A stretch of DNA of 64,000 nt from an uncultured Candidatus Saccharibacteria bacterium. GTDB taxonomy: Bacteria > Patescibacteriota > Minisyncoccia > Phycocordibacterales > UBA6065. The position numbers and the translations under genes are program-made. Of this stretch, positions 3,817-53,875 are shown piece by piece (within the stretch, counting starts at the first letter, position 1; each line of letters opens with the position of its first letter). The DNA is taken from assembly GCA_964368835.1 (NCBI GenBank), contig CAYJCZ010000005.1, forward strand, positions 43,695-107,694, given 5' to 3'. Below the pieces are notes generated by a model. That model ran no database searches, was not told where the DNA came from, and saw nothing but the letters and a program-made list of their open reading frames with translations.

Positions 3817-5985
3817 ATGGAGCCTTATAAAGAGCCAAATATTCCGGCAAAATTCCTTAAGCCGTACAACCCTATAGAAACCGAAGAAGCTATATACAAA
3901 AAATGGCTTAATGAAGGCTATTTTAATCCGGACAACCTCCCTCCTCGACACAAGGAAGCCTTTTCAATAGTTTTGCCACCTCCGAACGTAACAGGAACCC
4001 TCCACATTGGTCATGCATCAATGCTTGTTATCGAAGACATCATGGTTCGCTATAAGCGAATGATGGGATTTAAAACTCTATGGATTCCCGGCACCGATCA
4101 CGCAGCAATCGCAACTCAATCAAAAGTTGAAAGTGAAATATATAAAAAAGAAGGTAAGCGCAGGCAAGATTTGGGTCGAGAAGAACTCTTAAAGAGAGTT
4201 AACGCATTCGCACAAGAAAGCCACGATACAATTACAAACCAGATCAAAAAGATGGGCGCTTCTATAGACTGGTCACGCGAAGCCTACACTCTCGACGCAA
4301 AAAGAGAGTTGGCTGTTTTTGAAGCGTTCAAAAAGATGCACGAGGATGGTCTTATCTATCGTGGACACCGAATCGTTAACTGGGATCCAAAAGGTCAAAC
4401 AACTATTTCTGATGACGAAATTATATACACCGAAGAAAAGACTAAATTCTATTATTTCAAATACGGCCCTTTCACTATAGGTACAGCTCGACCAGAAACA
4501 AAATTCGGTGATAAGTACGTGGTGATGCATCCAAACGATGAACGATACAGTAAATTCAAGCACGGAGATCAAATAGACCTTGAATGGATCAACGGCCCAA
4601 TCAAGGCAACCATCATCAAAGATGAATCTATTGATATGGAATTCGGTACTGGTGTAATGACTATCACTCCTTGGCACTCTAACGTTGACTTTGAAATCGC
4701 AGAGCGACACAAGCTAGACAAAGAACAGATAATCGATAAGTACGGCAAGCTCCTCCCTATTGCTGGTGAATTTTCTGGCATGAAAATTGCAGACGCTCGA
4801 CAAAAGATCGTTGAAAAACTTCAAGCAAAGGGTCTTGTCGCAAAGGAAGAAGAATACACTCACAATATTGCCACTGCAGAACGAACCGGAGGCATTATCG
4901 AACCGCAGATAATGAATCAGTGGTTTGTCGATGTGAATAAAAAGATAAAGAACCGAGACAATAAATCCCTCAAGGAACTCATGCTCGAGGTAACTGTACC
5001 TGGAGACAAAAATATAGAGTTTATTCCAAGTCGTTTTGAAAAAATCTACACTAATTGGATTTCCAATCTTCGCGACTGGTGTATTTCTCGTCAAATATGG
5101 TTCGGTCATAGAATTCCTGTTTGGTATAAGGATTCTGAAATTAAAGTAAGCCTTGAAAGCCCCGGTGCAGATTGGACTCAGGACGAAGACACACTTGATA
5201 CCTGGTTTTCATCTGGCCTTTGGACATTCTCAACCCTAGGCTGGCCTGAAAAAACAAAAGATTTCAAAACATACCATCCAACATCAGTCCTAGAAACTGG
5301 ATATGACATCATTTTCTTCTGGGTCGCTCGCATGATTCTCATGTCTCAATACTTGGTTGGAGAGATCCCTTTCAAAACCGTATACCTACACGGCCTTGTT
5401 CGTGATGCTCAAGGCAGGAAGATGTCAAAATCACTTGGTAACATTATCGACCCTCTCGATATGGCCCAGAAGTACGGCACAGACGCAGTACGCATGTCGC
5501 TTATCGTAGGCACGGGTCCTGGAAATGACACCAAGATGTCCGAAGACAAAATCCGTGCGTACAAAAACTTTGCAAACAAGCTCTGGAACATCACCCGATT
5601 TGTTCTCTCTGCTACCGAAGGTGAAGTACTTGAACCAAAATTTTCAAAATATTCCGCAAAAGATAAGGAGCTTCTTGAAAAACAGTCTGCTCTCATATCA
5701 GAAATCACAAAAGAAATGGATGAATACAAGTTCTATCTTGTTGCTGAAAAACTCTACGCATACACATGGACTGAGTTTGCTGATGTTATCCTCGAGGAGT
5801 CAAAGAAAATCCTCGCTGAAGGCACAGATGCGGACAAGAAATCACGAAAGCAGTTCCTTCTCCACACTCTCTCTGTCATTTTGAGGTCACTTCACCCATT
5901 CGCACCTTTCGTTACCGAGGAAATCTGGTCTGACATGCCTATAAAAGATAAAAAATCGCTTATAATAGAAGAATGGCCGATTTAA
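3817..5985 (+). CDS. valS: Valine--tRNA ligase (short form lacking the C-terminal coiled coil)
   Basis: HIGH-type motif 'PPPNVTGTLHIGHA', the 'KMSKSLGN' motif, and ValRS-like editing and anticodon-binding domains; 722 aa. Confidence 0.9.
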   Translation: MEPYKEPNIPAKFLKPYNPIETEEAIYKKWLNEGYFNPDNLPPRHKEAFSIVLPPPNVTGTLHIGHASMLVIEDIMVRYKRMMGFKTLWIPGTDHAAIATQSKVESEIYKKEGKRRQDLGREELLKRVNAFAQESHDTITNQIKKMGASIDWSREAYTLDAKRELAVFEAFKKMHEDGLIYRGHRIVNWDPKGQTTISDDEIIYTEEKTKFYYFKYGPFTIGTARPETKFGDKYVVMHPNDERYSKFKHGDQIDLEWINGPIKATIIKDESIDMEFGTGVMTITPWHSNVDFEIAERHKLDKEQIIDKYGKLLPIAGEFSGMKIADARQKIVEKLQAKGLVAKEEEYTHNIATAERTGGIIEPQIMNQWFVDVNKKIKNRDNKSLKELMLEVTVPGDKNIEFIPSRFEKIYTNWISNLRDWCISRQIWFGHRIPVWYKDSEIKVSLESPGADWTQDEDTLDTWFSSGLWTFSTLGWPEKTKDFKTYHPTSVLETGYDIIFFWVARMILMSQYLVGEIPFKTVYLHGLVRDAQGRKMSKSLGNIIDPLDMAQKYGTDAVRMSLIVGTGPGNDTKMSEDKIRAYKNFANKLWNITRFVLSATEGEVLEPKFSKYSAKDKELLEKQSALISEITKEMDEYKFYLVAEKLYAYTWTEFADVILEESKKILAEGTDADKKSRKQFLLHTLSVILRSLHPFAPFVTEEIWSDMPIKDKKSLIIEEWPI

Positions 5986-7203: not shown

Positions 7204-7275
7204 GCCCCCGTAGTTCAATGGATAGAACGGCTCACTCCTAACGAGCTGATGTAGGTTCGATTCCTGCCGAGGGCA
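7204..7275 (+). tRNA. tRNA-Arg (anticodon CCT)
   Basis: Acceptor GCCCCCG/CGAGGGC with one C-A mismatch, D-arm GTTC-AATGGATA-GAAC, anticodon loop CTCCTAA, T-arm GTAGG-TTCGATT-CCTGC. Confidence 0.75.
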
Positions 7276-7282
7276 CACATAG

Positions 7283-8561: not shown

Positions 8562-8634
8562 GCTTGGATAGCTCAGTTGGTAGAGCATTCCCCTGAAGAG
8601 GGAAGGGTCCCCAGTTCGAACCTGGGTCCAAGCA
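8562..8634 (+). tRNA. tRNA-Phe (anticodon GAA)
   Basis: Acceptor GCTTGGA/TCCAAGC, D-arm GCTC-AGTTGGTA-GAGC, anticodon stem TTCCC/GGGAA with loop CTGAAGA, T-arm CCCAG-TTCGAAC-CTGGG. Confidence 0.9.
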
Positions 8635-8644
8635 CACAAGACAC

Positions 8645-15499: not shown

Positions 15500-15547
15500 A
15501 ACAAAGAACCAGCTGGCTTTTTCTCAGAAAGAGTGTATAAAGTATGG

Positions 15548-15863
15548 GCCTGTATCAGACGGCCGCTCTCGCCAAAAGCGAGGGAGGAAAGTCCGAACAC
15601 ATCCGGGCGAAAGTCCGGAGCACAGTAGCGGGTAACCCCCGTCCAGGGCAACCTGAGAGGTGCGAACAGAAACGGCTCTCAACGAAAGAAGAGAGATGTC
15701 CCTTGGGACAGTCCTCATGGCAACATGAGGGTGCAACGGCAAAATCCTTACTTATGTGCAAGGCCGTGCCGACCGCAAGGTCGGAGTGCCGCTCGAGGTC
15801 TTTGGTAACAAGGATCCCAGATAAATGGCCGTCCACGACAAAATTCGGCTTATCGATACAGAC
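15548..15863 (+). ncRNA. rnpB: RNase P RNA (rnpB), reduced bacterial type
   Basis: Conserved blocks 'GAGGAAAGTCCG', 'GGGTAACCCCCGTCCAGGGCAACC', 'GTGCGAACAGAAACGGCTCT' and the 3' block 'GTCCACGACAAAATTCGGCTTATCG' (E. coli M1 RNA has GTCCACGACAGAACCCGGCTTATCG). P1 pairs tgtatc with gataca. The region is GC-rich and lacks an ORF. Confidence 0.8.
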
Positions 15864-15869
15864 AAAATG

Positions 15870-20081: not shown

Positions 20082-20104
20082 CAAAAAAATCGCCTATGCG
20101 CGAT
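20082..20104 (-). terminator. Intrinsic terminator after the DUF192 gene (minus strand)
   Basis: Hairpin atcgc-ctatgc-gcgat followed on the minus strand by TTTTTTT. Confidence 0.5.
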
Positions 20105-20149
20105 CTTTTCCCACCAAAAATATATAAAAAAAATATTTTCCCACCAACA

Positions 20150-20638
20150 TTACTTCAAAATAATCTCATCTCCAATTTTTACACCCAATTGATCCACTGT
20201 CCCAGAATTAAATTCAAGAACATACAAAGATTTTTCTCCCGCTGAAAAAGATTTTGGAAATGTCTCAGGAGAGACAGCTTTTTCAATGCCGACAACAGAT
20301 TTATTTTTATCAAGCCAAACCATATCAATAGAAAATTTCATGTCTTTCATCCAAAAATCCCACATCCCCTCGTTCTCAAAAATAAAAAGCATTGCTTCAT
20401 CGTCATGAAGCTTGGAAAAACCACTAAGACCTCGAGAACGAAGCTCTCCCGTGTCAGAAACAAAGGCAGAAAATGTGCTGCTGGCAATAACAACCGAAAC
20501 CTCCTTATATGAGAGATCTCGCGGAGATGTTACGACGGTTTGTTTTTCGGAGCTTTCGTCTTGGTTCCAAGCTGAGTACAGCACACCACCACATATGAGA
20601 ACGAATATGATTCCTCCTAAAAAATATTTCTTCGGCAT
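20150..20638 (-). CDS. DUF192 (COG1430) family protein with an N-terminal signal anchor
   Basis: C-terminal '...MWDFWMKDMKFSIDMVWLDKNKSVVGI...SLYVLEFNSGTVDQLGVKIGDEI' fits the DUF192 pattern. Confidence 0.6.
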   Translation of the reverse strand: MPKKYFLGGIIFVLICGGVLYSAWNQDESSEKQTVVTSPRDLSYKEVSVVIASSTFSAFVSDTGELRSRGLSGFSKLHDDEAMLFIFENEGMWDFWMKDMKFSIDMVWLDKNKSVVGIEKAVSPETFPKSFSAGEKSLYVLEFNSGTVDQLGVKIGDEIILK

Positions 20639-22080: not shown

Positions 22081-23052
22081 TTATATCTCGCGGAGAGTCT
22101 TCACCAAATCATCTTTAAGAGTCTTTACTCGTTCATCATCAAGTACAGATACAGCAAACACTTCTTTATTAAGTTTTTTCGCTTCCTTTATTTTTGCTTT
22201 AAGCGTTTTCTCGTCAACAAGATCTGTCTTTGTAAGAAGAATGATTTCTTTTTTCGTTCCAAGTTCTTCTGAGTAATTCTCAAGCTCTTTTCGAATAGTT
22301 TTGTATGCAGTTGCAAGGTCTTCGTTCTCGAGAGAAATACAATGAAGGATCATCTTTGTACGAGCAATATGTCGGAGGAATTTATCTCCAAGACCCTTTC
22401 CGTCTGATGCACCTTCAATAAGTCCTGGAATGTCGGCCAAAATAAATTTATGCATTTCACCAAGGCTCGGCTCAAGTGTTGTGAATTGATACGCCGCGAC
22501 TTTTGACTTTGCATTTGTAAGCGCGTTCAAAAGCGATGACTTGCCTGCATTTGGAAATCCTACAAATCCTGCGTCTACAACGAGTTTGAGGACAACATGA
22601 AAATCTCCTTCTTCGCCGTTGCGGCCTTCAGTCGTTTGCTCTGGTCTCTGGTTGGTTGAAGCTTTGAAGTGTTCATTACCAAGTCCATAGCGTCCACCTT
22701 TAAGAATCTGAACTCGTTCCCCTTCTTTCAATAACTCAAAAGACTGTTGAGTGTCTTTGTTATACACAACAGATCCGATAGGCAGCTTAATAATGAGATC
22801 ATCGCCGTTTTTCCCATCCATCGATTTTTTGTTTCCGTTTCCACCGTTCTCAGCTTCAATGACCTTGGTATTTCGGTAATTAACCAAAATACTGATATCT
22901 CGAACAGCCTCAACATATACGTCGGCTCCTTTTCCGCCATTTCCACCGGCAGGACCCATGAACTCCTTACCCTTCTCATGAAGCCAGCGCACAACGCCAT
23001 CACCGCCCTTGCCTGCTTTTACGTGAAATTCAACTTCGTCAATAAATGCCAT
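22081..23052 (-). CDS. obgE: GTPase ObgE/CgtA
   Basis: An Obg fold 'MAFIDEVEFHVKAGKGGDGVVRW...GPAGGNGGKGADVYVEAV' followed by a G domain 'GFVGFPNAGKSSLL'. The track ORF is extended to 23157, but the Met at 23052 matches the canonical Obg N-terminus. Confidence 0.9.
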   Translation of the reverse strand: MAFIDEVEFHVKAGKGGDGVVRWLHEKGKEFMGPAGGNGGKGADVYVEAVRDISILVNYRNTKVIEAENGGNGNKKSMDGKNGDDLIIKLPIGSVVYNKDTQQSFELLKEGERVQILKGGRYGLGNEHFKASTNQRPEQTTEGRNGEEGDFHVVLKLVVDAGFVGFPNAGKSSLLNALTNAKSKVAAYQFTTLEPSLGEMHKFILADIPGLIEGASDGKGLGDKFLRHIARTKMILHCISLENEDLATAYKTIRKELENYSEELGTKKEIILLTKTDLVDEKTLKAKIKEAKKLNKEVFAVSVLDDERVKTLKDDLVKTLREI

Positions 23053-23092
23053 AGAGCTATAAACTACATCATAATCAAGAATAAATAAAGGA

Positions 23093-23121
23093 AAGGCCGT
23101 TGCGAAATGTTCGCAACGGCC
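23093..23121 (-). terminator. Strong hairpin (12-bp stem) plus a T-tract on the minus strand, about 40 nt upstream of the obgE ATG
   Basis: ggccgttgcgaa-atgt-ttcgcaacggcc, followed on the minus strand by TTTCCTTTATTTATT. Confidence 0.5.
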
Positions 23122-23319
23122 CGATTCAAACGACAGGTCTTGAAGACCTGGACCCACAACCAGAAACCAGTGACTAGTCTACGCCTCTAACCAAAGAACA
23201 AAAACCGATGGACCACCGGAGTGAGAGGATTACTCCGGTGGTCCCCGCCACGGTTGGCGTGCCAGACTAAGACCACCTTAGCATTTGCATTATACAAAGA
23301 AAGATAAAAACCGCAAGAG

Positions 23320-23664
23320 CTACTTGAGTTTCGATACCACCCAGTTCATTGCTGAAATAACGAGCGCGCCAAAAAATGCAGCTTTGTAAGAATCAACATC
23401 AAAACCCGGCGTTCGCAAAGCGACAAACCAAAGCATTGCTGCATTCACCACAAGTCCAAATAAACCAAGCGTAACGATGTTTACTGGAAGCGTTATCAAA
23501 CTTACGATCGGTTTTATCAAAAGATTTGCAAGCGCAAGCACCACCGTCGCCAAAAGCGCGTATTTAAATCCCTCAACAGTAATCCCTGGAATAAAATGCG
23601 GAAGTGCCATTATCGTAAAGCCGATAATGATCACTTTGAGTGTAATTCTGGCCAACACTTTCAT
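23320..23664 (-). CDS. DUF360/YvlD-like small membrane protein ('phage holin family 4'-like)
   Basis: A 114-aa protein with 4 TM helices and a Gly-rich helix pattern typical of the COG1950/DUF360 family. Confidence 0.5.
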   Translation of the reverse strand: MKVLARITLKVIIIGFTIMALPHFIPGITVEGFKYALLATVVLALANLLIKPIVSLITLPVNIVTLGLFGLVVNAAMLWFVALRTPGFDVDSYKAAFFGALVISAMNWVVSKLK

Positions 23665-39313: not shown

Positions 39314-40315
39314 ATGGCACAGAAGAAAAAGGCGCTTATTACCGGAGGAGCAGGTTTCGTGGGTTCCCATCTTGCCAAAAGGCTCGTAAATTCAGGATAC
39401 GAAGTCGTCATCGCTGACAACTTCTTTAGAAGTGAAAAAGATGCTGATCTCAAGGAGCTTCTCGCGCACCCATCAGTCACTATGATTGAAGGAGACCTCA
39501 CCAAAGCAGAATCATGGGACAAACTCGGTAAAGGATATGATCATGTGTATCACCTTGCGAGCATAAACGGCACAAAACTTTTCTATGAGATTCCTCACGA
39601 AGTTTTGCGCATTGGTATCATGTCTGCATTCCATGTACTTGATTGGTTTCGTGAAAAAAATGGAAAGAAAGACGCGAAAATTCTCTTTACTTCATCAAAT
39701 GAAGCTTATGCGGGTGCGCTCGAAGCGTTTGGCAAACTTCCGATTCCAACACCAGAGAATGTACCGCTAGTAATTGCTGATACATACAACGCCCGATGGT
39801 CATATGGCGGTCAAAAACTTATCGGCGAGCTTCTATTCATCCATTACGCAAAGGCATACAACTTTCGAATGTCGATTGTGCGCCCACACAACTTCTATGG
39901 ACCACGAGAAGGATACCTTCACGTTATCCCTGAAATAATTGAGCGTGCACGGCAAAAAACAGATCCATTTCCAATTTTTGGTTCAGATGACATGCGATCA
40001 TTCTGCTATATCGATGATGCTGTTGAGGCAATACAAGCTGTAATGGAATCAACCAAAACAGATGGTGGTACATATCACATCGGTAGCAATGATGAGATCG
40101 TTATCAAAGATCTCATTGAAAAGATTTTCACAATAATGAATTGGCACCCAGATAAGCTTGATATCAAATCTTCACCTGCTGGTAGCGTAAAGCGTCGGTT
40201 GGCAGATGTATCGAAAATAAAAAAAGATACTGGTTGGGAGGCAAAAACATCGCTCGATGAGGGCCTTAAGAAAATAGTTGATTGGTATCTGAAAAATCCA
40301 AAGCCGACAAAATAA
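39314..40315 (+). CDS. NAD-dependent epimerase/dehydratase (extended SDR, UXS/4,6-dehydratase-like)
   Basis: 'ITGGAGFVGSHLAKRL' and a catalytic 'YGGQK' (YxxxK). Confidence 0.8.
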   Translation: MAQKKKALITGGAGFVGSHLAKRLVNSGYEVVIADNFFRSEKDADLKELLAHPSVTMIEGDLTKAESWDKLGKGYDHVYHLASINGTKLFYEIPHEVLRIGIMSAFHVLDWFREKNGKKDAKILFTSSNEAYAGALEAFGKLPIPTPENVPLVIADTYNARWSYGGQKLIGELLFIHYAKAYNFRMSIVRPHNFYGPREGYLHVIPEIIERARQKTDPFPIFGSDDMRSFCYIDDAVEAIQAVMESTKTDGGTYHIGSNDEIVIKDLIEKIFTIMNWHPDKLDIKSSPAGSVKRRLADVSKIKKDTGWEAKTSLDEGLKKIVDWYLKNPKPTK

Positions 40316-40350
40316 AAATACCGGGATTAATCCCGGTATTTTTATTTTTT
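40312..40350. terminator. Bidirectional intrinsic terminator between the epimerase gene (+) and the DegT gene (-)
   Basis: Hairpin ataccggga-ttaa-tcccggtat flanked by an A-run and a T-run. Confidence 0.6.
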
Positions 40351-51388: not shown

Positions 51389-52736
51389 AGAGTCGCTCCT
51401 TTATAGCAAATATTGCATAGATAGCAAAGGAGAATATGAAGACATTCACAGGGATTCTAAATCTAGCATTCACACCTAGTCCGTTTATACATGTCGTTGC
51501 AGCAAAATAGAGAATCATAAGAAAAGCTGCCAAAATCATAGGTCGTAGACCCTGACGTTTAAACATAAGAAATACTCCTACAAAGAAAAGAAGTGTGATC
51601 AAAATCCATACAAGTCTCATCATGAGAATAAGCACAGCCGGGCTCTGAATGTACTTTCCTATCACTTTAATAAGTTCAATCGGTTCTTTGATAAGCGAAA
51701 TAACGGGTTTCGATAGAACGTTCGGGATAGTAATTCCTGAATACTGTAGAACTGTAAGCATTCCGTCGTGAGTAAAGAATGTAACTCCGGAAATGAAAGC
51801 AGATTTTATGAGCGCGGTTTTATGCTCGAGCAAAACTTTAATCGCCTCTTCTTTATAGAAATCAGCGTTTGAAAGATTGATATCGTTTACATCAAAATTA
51901 TCTTCCAGAGCGAACGCCTCAAGTTCTGTTTGAAAATTAGTATCGTTGTCTATTGAAAGCACTGTTGGAACAAGATACACATAAAGATTGAAAGATGGCT
52001 GCGCGCTTATTCCCCACACTCCGAATTCCTGGTGATTTCTCCAAAGCCACGGAGCAATGATCACAAAGAAGGCTAGTAGAAATGCCGCCGCCTGCTTTAG
52101 ATGCGTGACCGCTAAATTCTTTCTCCATAGTATTGCCAAGGCGATAGGTATAAAGATTGGAAAAAATTGCACCGTTGGCTTTATAAGACATGCGAGCCCG
52201 AGAAACACTCCAGTCCACACGGCATTACGAAGTGTCTGCTTTTCAATATATCTAAATAGAAATATGAGGAATATGAGAAAAAAGAATGTAAATGAAGTTT
52301 CAGTATAAAGAATGAAAGAAAGAAGGATCGAATACGGTTCGAATACCAAAAGTCCTGCAACCCATTTTGAAAGCTTCTGTCCTACCAATCGAGAAGCGAC
52401 ATAGTATCCCAATACTGGAATAAAGGATCCTAAGATAAGTTCCAGAATCAAGACTGCCCAATAACTTCCAAAAATCTTTGCTATAAAAGCGATAAGTATC
52501 GGCCAAAGTGGAGGTCGTAGTGGATTCGGTCTAAACGGTGGCACCTCATCAAAGGTAAAGCCATTTCCAGCGTTTATATTCTGACTTAGTTCATAGTAGC
52601 CATCATCTCCTTTAATCGTAGGTACAAGATTGTGATCGTTTACAGAAAAGTTTATGGAAAATAAAACAATACGCACGAGGAGCGCACAGAGAAATAGTGC
52701 GACCGGAAATTTGTGAGCTTTTAACCAATCCTTCAT
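51357..52736 (-). CDS. Glycosyltransferase family 39/83-like (ArnT/PMT-type polyprenyl-phosphate-sugar-dependent GT-C)
   Basis: About 11 TM helices, and an N-terminal loop 'DDGYYELSQNINAGNGFTF' that matches the GT-C catalytic-loop pattern. Confidence 0.6.
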   Translation of the reverse strand: MKDWLKAHKFPVALFLCALLVRIVLFSINFSVNDHNLVPTIKGDDGYYELSQNINAGNGFTFDEVPPFRPNPLRPPLWPILIAFIAKIFGSYWAVLILELILGSFIPVLGYYVASRLVGQKLSKWVAGLLVFEPYSILLSFILYTETSFTFFFLIFLIFLFRYIEKQTLRNAVWTGVFLGLACLIKPTVQFFPIFIPIALAILWRKNLAVTHLKQAAAFLLAFFVIIAPWLWRNHQEFGVWGISAQPSFNLYVYLVPTVLSIDNDTNFQTELEAFALEDNFDVNDINLSNADFYKEEAIKVLLEHKTALIKSAFISGVTFFTHDGMLTVLQYSGITIPNVLSKPVISLIKEPIELIKVIGKYIQSPAVLILMMRLVWILITLLFFVGVFLMFKRQGLRPMILAAFLMILYFAATTCINGLGVNARFRIPVNVFIFSFAIYAIFAIKERLYEAFRSHSRV

Positions 52737-53875
52737 ATATGCATATATGATACTATGCGCGCTGCCCTTTTATCCCATGTGTGATCAAGTACTTTTGAAT
52801 AGGCTTTTTGTGCCAAGGCTTCGTACTTGCTTGAGTTGCTTACGACTTCTTGGATTGCTTGCGCGAGCGCCTGTGGATCATCTGGTATGACAAGATACGC
52901 TGAGTGCTCATCCACAATCTCACGAATCGATGGGATGCTCGACGCAACAATAGGCCGTCCGCTTGCCATATACTCGTAAAGCTTCATTGGTGAAGTGTAG
53001 TAGGCTGATATTTTTTCTTTTGCCGTGTTTGGAAGTACGAGCACATCTGCCGCTTTTTGCCACAAAGGCATTTCGTCATGAGGCTTAAAACCAACAATTG
53101 AAATGGTGGACTCCTGATACTTTTGCTTAAATGCTTCGACATCTATAGGAGTTCCTCCCACAAATATCACTTGGTAGTCATTTTGTAATAACTTTGCAGC
53201 TTGAGCGAGAGTATCAACACCCTTCCAGCCATAAAGATGTCCAGTGTAGACAGCGATTTTCTTTGAAGGTGGAAGAGAAAGCTTTTTTCGGGCGTCTTCC
53301 TTTGAAATAGGTATGTCGAATGCCTTTATATCAACTGCGTTTGGTTCATATAAAAATTTTGTTTGAGGCACTTTTGGAAAGAGTTTTTTTGCCTCTTCGA
53401 GCTTCCATCTATTATGAATAAGGATCCATTTCATGCGTGAGAGAAACTTTCCAAAGAAAGTAATTTTGCTTTCAGGGAAATCATGCATTTCGTAAAAACA
53501 GTTCTTGAAATCCCAAGATAAAAGAAAAAGTGGTAATGATTCGTTTGAATACATTACGTCCTGCTTGCCTGCGTGCTTCATCATAAAGAAATAGACAGAT
53601 GTTGAGAAAGCTAAGAAGCTCGTCCAGAAAGCAAAACGGCGAAGTATTGGCACGTTGTAGATATCGATTGTCTTTACGTACTCGATAGTAAAGTTTTTTT
53701 CTACAGAATAAAAAGTGTATGGGTCATCTTTTATAATCCCCTTGCGGGCTGGGACGACGAGAGTGACATCAAAGCCTTGGCGGACAAAGGCTGCGGCGCT
53801 TTTTGCGGCAAAAAGCGCCGCAGCTTTCTCACTCGGAAACCTCCCATGAAAAATGAGGAAAAGTTTCTTTTTCAT
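52733..53875 (-). CDS. Glycosyltransferase family 4 (GT-B)
   Basis: 'VLPNTAKEKISAYYTSPMKLYEYMASGRPIVASSIPSIREIV' EX7E motif. Confidence 0.75.
   Translation of the reverse strand: MKKKLFLIFHGRFPSEKAAALFAAKSAAAFVRQGFDVTLVVPARKGIIKDDPYTFYSVEKNFTIEYVKTIDIYNVPILRRFAFWTSFLAFSTSVYFFMMKHAGKQDVMYSNESLPLFLLSWDFKNCFYEMHDFPESKITFFGKFLSRMKWILIHNRWKLEEAKKLFPKVPQTKFLYEPNAVDIKAFDIPISKEDARKKLSLPPSKKIAVYTGHLYGWKGVDTLAQAAKLLQNDYQVIFVGGTPIDVEAFKQKYQESTISIVGFKPHDEMPLWQKAADVLVLPNTAKEKISAYYTSPMKLYEYMASGRPIVASSIPSIREIVDEHSAYLVIPDDPQALAQAIQEVVSNSSKYEALAQKAYSKVLDHTWDKRAARIVSYMHI

Follow-up and report, generated by a model that had tools for sequence, protein, structure and literature searches.

The yvlD-obg spacer

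The stretch of DNA analysed here, 64 kb in length and called the window below, carries on its minus strand a yvlD-like gene followed by obg. The two genes are separated by a spacer of 267 nt, which extends from the yvlD-like stop codon (23322-23320) to the obg ATG (23052-23050). In Pfam the product of the upstream gene matches PF04020 and the obg product matches PF01018 and PF01926, in agreement with the identities given in the original prediction. A longer version of obg, a GTG-started ORF of 358 aa (from 23157), was rejected as an in-frame artefact; the Pfam Obg domain begins at residue 4 of the protein that starts at ATG 23052.

The original prediction described this spacer as a GC-rich, hairpin-dense leader. 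All the elements that it listed can be read from the sequence on the minus strand, at the positions where they had been placed. The G+C content is indeed higher in the spacer (0.50-0.55) than in its flanks (about 0.40-0.46), but the excess is modest. The long hairpins are far beyond chance: the fold z-scores against shuffled sequences are -4.8 for the minus strand and -7.8 for the plus strand, and the window holds nine perfect stems of at least 12 bp versus none in the shuffles. Since most of these nine stems lie in intergenic or just-post-gene spacers, for instance after tRNAs, RNase P RNA and enolase, the two long hairpins of the spacer, T1 and T2, are of the usual terminator type of this genome.

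No Rfam family accounts for the spacer. With Rfam (15) at the gathering threshold, the whole window gave only RNase P RNA and three tRNAs; a 2.5-kb region searched at E values up to 10 and the 261-nt spacer searched alone returned no relevant family, riboswitch or leader. The best match to the spacer alone was RF02499 (Atu_C4) at 23149-23086, with 17.9 bits (gathering score 80) and an E value of 0.32 for the 261 nt searched. ARAGORN found no tRNA or tmRNA in the spacer. A second copy of a T1 arm, or of any other segment of the spacer, was not found within the 64-kb window, and the idea of a repeat or mobile element was rejected on this ground.

Turnover of the spacer among relatives

Obg homologs place the window in the Paceibacteria/Parcubacteria, within the candidate phyla radiation (CPR). 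The comparison with relatives drew on 140 obg loci in collections of genomes and metagenomes and on 12 more (L141-L152) retrieved by exact-protein look-up of intermediate relatives. In most of them no more than 10-25 nt lie in front of obg, and the preceding gene is usually one of about 300 aa which, judging from its C-terminal sequence motifs, we take to be MYG1-like. Among these loci, the spacer sequence of the window is shared only with two contigs of 99% identity, L061 (same population) and L152, and a blastn search of the spacer against the upstream regions of relatives hit only L061, which is of the spacer's own type, and 41 nt of L004 at the obg promoter. Block-wise homology with heavy turnover was seen with L141/L142 (98%), L143/L144 and L146 (93%), L147 (90%) and L004 (86%). 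Relatives with an Obg identity of 89% or more have spacers of 16 to 521 nt, and at 86% the sequence similarity is gone. In L148 and L150, with 90% Obg identity, the gap between yvlD and obg is just 16 nt and has no hairpins.

By these comparisons, the spacer sequence turns over quickly within a subclade of Paceibacteria. About six distinct lineages carry the element, four of them alignable, and it adjoins obg even where the upstream gene is a different one (L084, L151). As the element is missing from close relatives, it must be dispensable for obg. The region 5' of obg emerges as a hotspot of small and fast-changing promoter-terminator cassettes, some with conserved mini-ORF motifs, and metatranscriptomes could be searched there at little cost for the first small RNAs or micropeptides from these uncultured bacteria.

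Predicted promoter and 5' hairpins of a small unit

Right after the yvlD stop codon lies a predicted sigma-70-type promoter (23289-23316, minus strand), composed of a -35 hexamer TTGCGG (23316-23311), a 16-nt spacer and a -10 hexamer TATAAT (23294-23289), from which transcription of a small unit would start at about 23284-23281. In five lineages the hexamers recur at this position behind yvlD and at fixed spacing, with variable sequence between them: they read TTGCAG/TATAGT in L141, TTGCGA/TATAGT in L004 and TTGAAT/TATACT in L146, and L143 has a weak -35 followed by TATAAA. The combination TTGCGG-16-TATAAT was not listed by a consensus promoter scan.

The RNA from this promoter would begin with a small hairpin, P1 (23266-23282), of sequence GCUAAG-GUGGU-CUUAGU, which is part of the minimum free energy (MFE) structure of the promoter-to-T1 RNA. 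At the same site L143 has GGCUAAG-GUCA-CUUAGCC, with the stem extended and the loop changed. A linker, UCUGGCA, of which CUGGCA is common to the window and L143, leads to a second small hairpin, P2 (23246-23259; CGCCA-ACCG-UGGCG). Its equivalent in L143 is GCCGC-UUC-GCGGC, and the arms GCCCU/AGGGC in L141 and GCCCC/GGGGC in L146 differ by a U-A to C-G change. The fold with the three hairpins P1, P2 and T1 is the MFE structure in the window and, independently, in L143 at 93% identity, despite the changes in sequence.

On the same comparisons, the spacer has no conserved coding potential. Among its ORFs of at least 20 aa, none has a start that is kept in L143, and those in the sense of the RNA either cross T1 or begin upstream of the predicted transcription start. 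A leaderless mini-ORF, MLRWS*, with an ATG 4 nt after the -10 hexamer, was rejected for its unsuitable spacing and because L143, L141 and L146 do not have it.

The T1 hairpin

T1 together with its U-rich tract occupies 23193-23244 of the minus strand. Its stem of 13 perfect pairs, nine of them G-C, is formed by GGACCACCGGAGT (23244-23232) and ACTCCGGTGGTCC (23222-23210) around a 9-nt loop, and is followed by five nucleotides, AUCGG, and then by the U-rich UUUUUGUUCUUU (23204-23193). The hairpin is not directly behind yvlD but begins 76 nt beyond its stop codon.

T1 has been kept by compensatory changes across the four lineages that could be aligned (window, L143, L141 and L146), although at that number the statistics are thin. 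Over 12 aligned pairs, 95.8% of the positions are paired and five pairs have changed on both sides, a result equalled in just 1-2 of 500 shuffles; every slid register does much worse than the true one. Moreover, L143 and L146 have G.U pairs in T1 that would be A.C on the other strand, so that the selected structure lies in the minus-strand RNA. A plus-strand RNA was rejected for this reason and also because its hairpins are not followed by U tracts, which occur 3' of T1 and T2 on the minus strand only. A long-range pairing of CUUAGUCUGGCACGCC with GGCGUAGACUAGUC, seen in the plus-strand fold, was likewise discarded; it is lost in L143 and is broken by a single substitution in L061 and by a patch of changes in L152. 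The plus strand also has a small ORF, MDHRSERITPVVPATVGVPD (23208-23270), antisense to the small unit and open in L143 too. It has no Shine-Dalgarno or -10 context, and its similarity to L143 follows from the DNA homology of the stem.

As a terminator T1 is not canonical. In every lineage the U tract is set 4-7 nt off the stem (5 nt in the window), and T1 passes a terminator scan only via a nested 6-bp hairpin or an AACCG/CGGUU extension. The tail TTTTGTTCTTT is invariant in six lineages that span 71-100% Obg identity, including L084 with its different upstream gene; a T1-like hairpin in L151 has no U tract at all. T1 is probably an intrinsic or partial terminator, both of the small RNA and of read-through from yvlD. 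Given the distance of the U tract from the stem, it may nevertheless be leaky as a terminator, or serve chiefly as a structural hairpin within one RNA of about 195 nt with its end at T2.

Second segment and predicted terminator T2

Between T1 and T2 lies a second segment (23123-23192, minus strand), which comprises a G/U-rich part of about 45 nt, a 7-bp hairpin CAGGUCU-UCA-AGACCUG (23150-23134, in which 23150-23144 pairs with 23140-23134) and the linker UCGUUUGAAUC. A weak -10-like TAGACT (23181-23176) and a GUGGGU (23157-23152) occur within it, and in the window no convincing promoter could be assigned to it. Its homologies are divided: the part with the hairpin and T2 is homologous to L141, and the part GUUAGGCG...UAGUCAC to L143 and L147. 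L147 lacks the T1 unit, and there the homologue of the second segment directly follows a promoter of its own, TTGCAA-17-TATTAT. The sole difference between L152 and the window is an 11-nt patch (23186-23176) that creates a TATAAT inside the second segment.

T2 (23080-23122, minus strand) has the form of a canonical intrinsic terminator. Its stem (23122-23094) has 12 Watson-Crick pairs, eight of them G-C, and one G.U pair around the loop CAU, and UUCCUUUAUUUAUU follows directly on the 3' side. It was listed both by the terminator scan and by the scan for perfect hairpins, and its 3' end lies 42 nt before the ATG at 23052, close to obg as had been predicted. Hairpins at the T2 position in L141, L143, L146, L004, L147 and L151 have unlike stems and a common CTTT(A/C)TTTAT tail. 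No upstream segment able to compete with the pairing of T2 was found.

The predicted promoter and start of obg

The region from the T2 tail to the start codon (23050-23089, minus strand) has the features of a promoter. A -35-like TTTATT (23089-23084) in the T2 tail is followed, after 17 nt, by a -10-like TAGTTT (23066-23061), which ends 8 nt before the obg ATG, and there is no Shine-Dalgarno sequence. Among 49 distinct obg upstream regions with at least 70% Obg identity, a TAnnnT box whose end lies 7-10 nt from the ATG, typically TGTAAGTT, is present in about 40, and a Shine-Dalgarno-like 4-mer in only six. The TGTAAGTT box is retained in L148 and L150, both of which are without the spacer element. 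The CTTTATTTAT of the T2 tail sits at the expected -35 position, and a T-rich version of it is kept in L008 although there is no terminator hairpin in that locus.

The other genes of the window are similar in this respect. A TAnnnT box ends 5-9 nt before the start in 15 of 49 genes, against four of 49 at a control offset, while a Shine-Dalgarno-like 4-mer at -20 to -5 is found in four of 49 against five at the control offset. In published work (GeneMarkS-2, PMC6028130), leaderless genes are marked by a Pribnow box 6-8 nt before the start codon. With a conserved -10 box near the ATG, no Shine-Dalgarno sequence and this signature, obg would have its own promoter, and its transcript most likely starts at the ATG, downstream of T2, and is leaderless. 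It follows from the position of this promoter that the hairpin-rich spacer would not be an obg leader. A genome almost without Shine-Dalgarno use and with a clear leaderless signature is also of use to CPR genomics, as it bears on the calling of gene starts and on the reading of any "5' leader" in such genomes.

A proposed independent non-coding transcription unit

The explanation that we favor, with a probability of roughly 0.55, is that the spacer is a lineage-restricted, independent non-coding transcription unit and not the 5' leader of obg. The promoter right after the yvlD stop would start an RNA near 23283, which would fold into P1, P2 and the very stable T1 and continue into the conserved U-rich tract. 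Where transcription stops at T1, the RNA would be about 85-90 nt long. Where it reads through T1, whose U tract is set back by 5 nt, about 110 nt more would be added via the small hairpin up to T2, for a total of about 195 nt. T1 would additionally end read-through from yvlD. T2 would shield the next promoter, its U-rich tail doubling as the -35 region of obg, and the obg mRNA would begin at or next to the ATG. The use of the promoters, the ends of the RNA and any role that it may have in trans are what we infer from this arrangement. The original prediction had also considered a small structured non-coding RNA rather than a plain terminator, and the conserved -35/-10 pair, the common three-hairpin fold and the compensatory changes in T1 point, by inference, in that direction. 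The spacer RNA is thus an unannotated candidate orphan small RNA, bounded by ordinary terminators.

A simpler explanation would be that T1 and T2 are plain tandem terminators that end yvlD and insulate obg, with no functional RNA between them, and that neither the hexamers nor the small hairpins are more than neutral features in a spacer that is AT-rich and fast-drifting. The resemblance of T1 and T2 to other terminators of the genome agrees with it, as do the rapid turnover in length, the dispensability of the element in close relatives and the generic "hairpin plus terminator" nature of the best Rfam match (E=0.32). However, a terminator of yvlD would be expected right behind the gene and not 76 nt past its stop, and neutral drift does not readily explain why the -35 and -10 hexamers have kept their position in five lineages when the sequence between them has not, or why L143 again forms P1 and P2 from a changed sequence. 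Moreover, the invariance of TTTTGTTCTTT from 71 to 100% Obg identity goes beyond what a U tract needs, and in L147 the second segment stands behind a promoter of its own with no T1. We therefore consider that plain terminators are a rather unlikely explanation of the whole spacer. It is more doubtful still that the spacer is a decayed coding cassette, in which only the terminators function, derived either from the tiny-ORF units found upstream of obg (mini-ORFs MGGF, MGEL, MGGL and MGDFN) or from the 3' end of the MYG1-like gene. Such an origin is suggested by GTGGGTCC at 23157 in the window, 105 nt before the obg ATG, where L006, L017, L146 and L151 have ATGGGYGR mini-ORFs at 94-121 nt, and by the likeness between the invariant (CCAC)TTTTGTTCTTT and CCACTTTTTGTTRTTTAT, which codes for PLFV(I/V)Y in the MYG1-like gene of relatives with 63-65% identity. 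These motifs are short and T-rich, however, and T1 is under selection as an RNA structure. The blastn comparison showed no similarity of the spacer beyond L061 and the 41-nt L004 match, and a tblastn search with 21 MYG1-like proteins against 14 spacers, including that of the window, gave nothing significant (best E=0.035, for L141, in a tiny database). A MYG1-like pseudogene was accordingly rejected, and the MYG1-like gene is found nowhere else in the window.

The same recurring motifs allow a more speculative interpretation, to which we give little credence: the spacer would be a member of a hypervariable cassette family located on the 5' side of leaderless obg in this Paceibacteria subclade, behind any upstream gene, and would constitute a new cis-acting device. 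The features that recur are a T1-like hairpin, the invariant (CCAC)UUUUGUUCUUU, a UGGGY or a mini-ORF motif MG[GDE][FL] some 100-120 nt upstream of the obg ATG, and a terminator joined to the -35 of obg. If this were true, translation of the cassette or protein binding to it might, for example, determine the amount of transcription that proceeds past T2 to the obg promoter region, or the RNA might influence the expression of obg.

Alternative pairing and the proposed attenuation of obg

According to the original prediction, mutually exclusive pairings upstream of obg suggested a transcription-attenuation element. In such an attenuator or riboswitch-like switch, GGUGGUC (23277-23271) would pair with GACCACC (23243-23237), enclosing P2 and blocking T1, and a signal would set termination against read-through into the second segment and obg. 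The pairing is real in the sequence: it is a 7-bp Watson-Crick helix, its two strands are exactly 27 nt apart, and GGUGGUC spans the last base of the P1 5' strand, the loop and the first base of the 3' strand. When the 3' arm of T1 was held unpaired, as a mimic of nascent RNA, the best fold was indeed the antiterminator, but the terminator fold is much more stable (-40.2 versus -26.8 kcal/mol). A GUGGUC is also present in the P2 loop of L141 and L146, where it can make 6-7 bp with the T1 5' arms using G.U pairs, and the persistence of the element by obg despite other upstream genes (L084, L151) leaves room for a role in cis.

However, the helix is within what chance would give. When the 40 nt upstream were shuffled, 247 of 2000 shuffles (12%) could pair with the T1 5' arm in a helix of 7 bp or more, with G.U allowed, and the corresponding values in L143, L141, L146 and L004 were 63%, 60%, 24% and 8%, none of them significant. 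In L143 the equivalent segment is the GGUCAC of the P1 loop, which forms no more than four contiguous bp with the T1 5' arm, and the best alternative helix anywhere is one of 5 bp at another position. Across the four aligned lineages, the covariation seen in five of the 12 pairs of T1 has no counterpart in the competing helix, which has no pair changed on both sides and 75% paired cells against a shuffle mean of 77.7%. A conserved sensor upstream of T1 was not found either, as no Rfam riboswitch or leader family matched, even with the spacer alone, and no leader ORF is common to the window and L143. Beyond T1 there is nothing to regulate but about 110 nt and the strong, unregulated T2, with the predicted promoter of obg downstream of it, and relatives at 90% identity (L148, L150) do without the element. 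Attenuation of obg is not supported, and we regard it as improbable; the wobble pairing of GUGGUC in L141 and L146 keeps it as a minor rival. What falls away is a tempting but unsupported annotation, that of an attenuator for an essential GTPase; ordinary terminators and an orphan small RNA candidate take its place.

Comparison with known systems

Attenuators of the terminator/antiterminator type and ON-type riboswitches have in common with the spacer an upstream segment that can pair with the 5' arm of the terminator, and the nascent RNA would fold in this way first. Unlike them, the spacer has no conserved aptamer, Rfam match or leader peptide, and no gene lies directly under the control of T1. 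The likeness to RF02499 (Atu_C4), a small RNA of Rhizobiales, lies in the succession of a small hairpin, a short linker and a U-tailed terminator hairpin; with a score far under gathering, it concerns the general shape and is no sign of membership.

In enterobacteria, type I 3'UTR small RNAs such as DapZ and MicL have their own promoter in the 3' region of the upstream gene and share the terminator of its mRNA. The spacer has no sequence or family relation to them, and its host is a CPR bacterium with no Hfq context known. It resembles them in architecture only, with a promoter at or just after the upstream stop codon and a short structured RNA that would end at the terminator of that gene.

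As regards intrinsic terminators, including tandem ones and those that overlap a promoter, a U tract 5 nt off the stem, as in T1 (4-7 nt in relatives), is unusual for an efficient terminator, and a T1 tail invariant across lineages is more than a U tract requires. In other respects T1 and T2 are alike to these terminators, with G+C-rich stems of 12-13 bp, short loops and U-rich tracts on the transcribed strand, and with stems that are kept by compensatory change while the sequence drifts.

Translation starts in the window and the start of obg

Start sites were surveyed over the whole window, in a set comprising 49 ORFs with a length of 150 aa or more and the yvlD-like gene. A Shine-Dalgarno-like 4-mer at -20 to -5 was present before 4 of 49 starts, as against 5 of 49 at the control offset, and the genes of the window are thus essentially without Shine-Dalgarno (SD) sequences. 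A TAnnnT box ending 5-9 nt before the start codon was found at 15/49 starts and at 4/49 control positions; it is seen, for instance, as TATAAT-agaaga-ATG at 5973 and, before gatB (22072), as TATAAT-taaagta-ATG. A start-proximal box is the signature of leaderless genes described in PMC6028130. Since SD-like sequences stay at the control level and TAnnnT boxes exceed it, the start-site sequences point to a largely leaderless genome in this CPR bacterium.

The mechanical ORF list gave obg as a 358-aa ORF with a GTG start (22081-23157, minus strand), which we reject as an artefact because 35 codons happen to be free of stops, so that the frame runs through the terminator-type hairpin T2 and the promoter region. 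In the protein starting at the ATG at 23052, the Obg Pfam domain begins at residue 4.

Sequence elements upstream of obg

Downstream of hairpins that are otherwise unrelated, TTTTGTTCTTT is invariant in lineages whose Obg is 71-100% identical to that of the window. It lies at 23203-23193 in the window and is also found at the obg loci L004, L084/L085, L141-L144, L146 and L152 of relatives, often directly preceded by CCAC and always 139-191 nt from the obg ATG. A resembling sequence, CCACTTTTTGTTRTTTAT, encodes PLFV(I/V)Y within the MYG1-like gene found 5' of obg in relatives at 63-65% identity. The TTTTGTTCTTT region was also considered as a relic of a MYG1-like pseudogene, and this reading was discarded, as a tblastn search with 21 MYG1-like proteins against 14 spacers was negative.

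The window and L152 (99% Obg identity) were compared along the 273 nt between the yvlD stop and the obg ATG, and they differ there by 8 substitutions only, all within 11 nt (window 23186-23176, L152 1367-1377). These change AGGCGTAGACT of the window to GCATATAATCA in L152, where a TATAAT arises, and one of them is also present in L061. The difference looks like replacement of a patch and not like point mutation.

A mini-ORF motif, ATGGGYGR..TAR, occurs at a near-fixed distance of 94-121 nt before the obg ATG in four lineages (L006, L017, L146 and L151), with the peptides MGGF, MGDFN, MGEL and MGGL, each ending at the stop codon. It has five matches in 1.4 Mb on both strands, four of which are those upstream of obg, and a second start-stop mini-ORF (ATGGA..TAA) often lies 5' of it. 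The equivalent place reads GTGGGT in the window (within GTGGGTCC at 23157-23150), CTGGGT in L143 and ATGGGTTAG in L147. This may be a peptide or an RNA motif.

Another type of cassette was observed 100-300 nt 5' of obg in L011, L114, L002, L149, L015 and L017, with its own promoter and an SD, then a tiny ORF that is not conserved, some 100 nt of structured RNA and, last, a terminator. The SD is strong, a rarity in these genomes, and lies within the motif CAACCAAAGGAG. The tiny ORFs read MIVRIVNI, MIALNVIVAK, MINWSPAANT, MLALTSLNSS and MSGFDKIIIGCRRFA, several being rich in Ile/Val.

Other RNAs, repeats and hairpins

Searches of the whole window with Rfam and ARAGORN gave no matches beyond bacterial class A RNase P RNA (15547-15868; Rfam, 136.6 bits) and three tRNAs, tRNA-Val(GAC) at 2525-2598, tRNA-Arg(CCT) at 7204-7276 and tRNA-Phe(GAA) at 8562-8635 (Rfam/ARAGORN), all on the plus strand. 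At 20103-20162 a tandem duplicate of 30 nt, A/T-rich and with 77% identity, covers the end of a spacer and the final codons of a DUF192 gene (20150-20638, minus strand). The perfect 16-bp G+C-rich hairpin GCTGCGGCGCTTTTTG-CGG-CAAAAAGCGCCGCAGC (53790-53824) falls within predicted coding sequence (52733-53875, minus strand), a placement not shared by most other long hairpins of the window. Between two convergent genes lies a perfect 40-nt palindrome (40309-40348), which is probably a bidirectional terminator.
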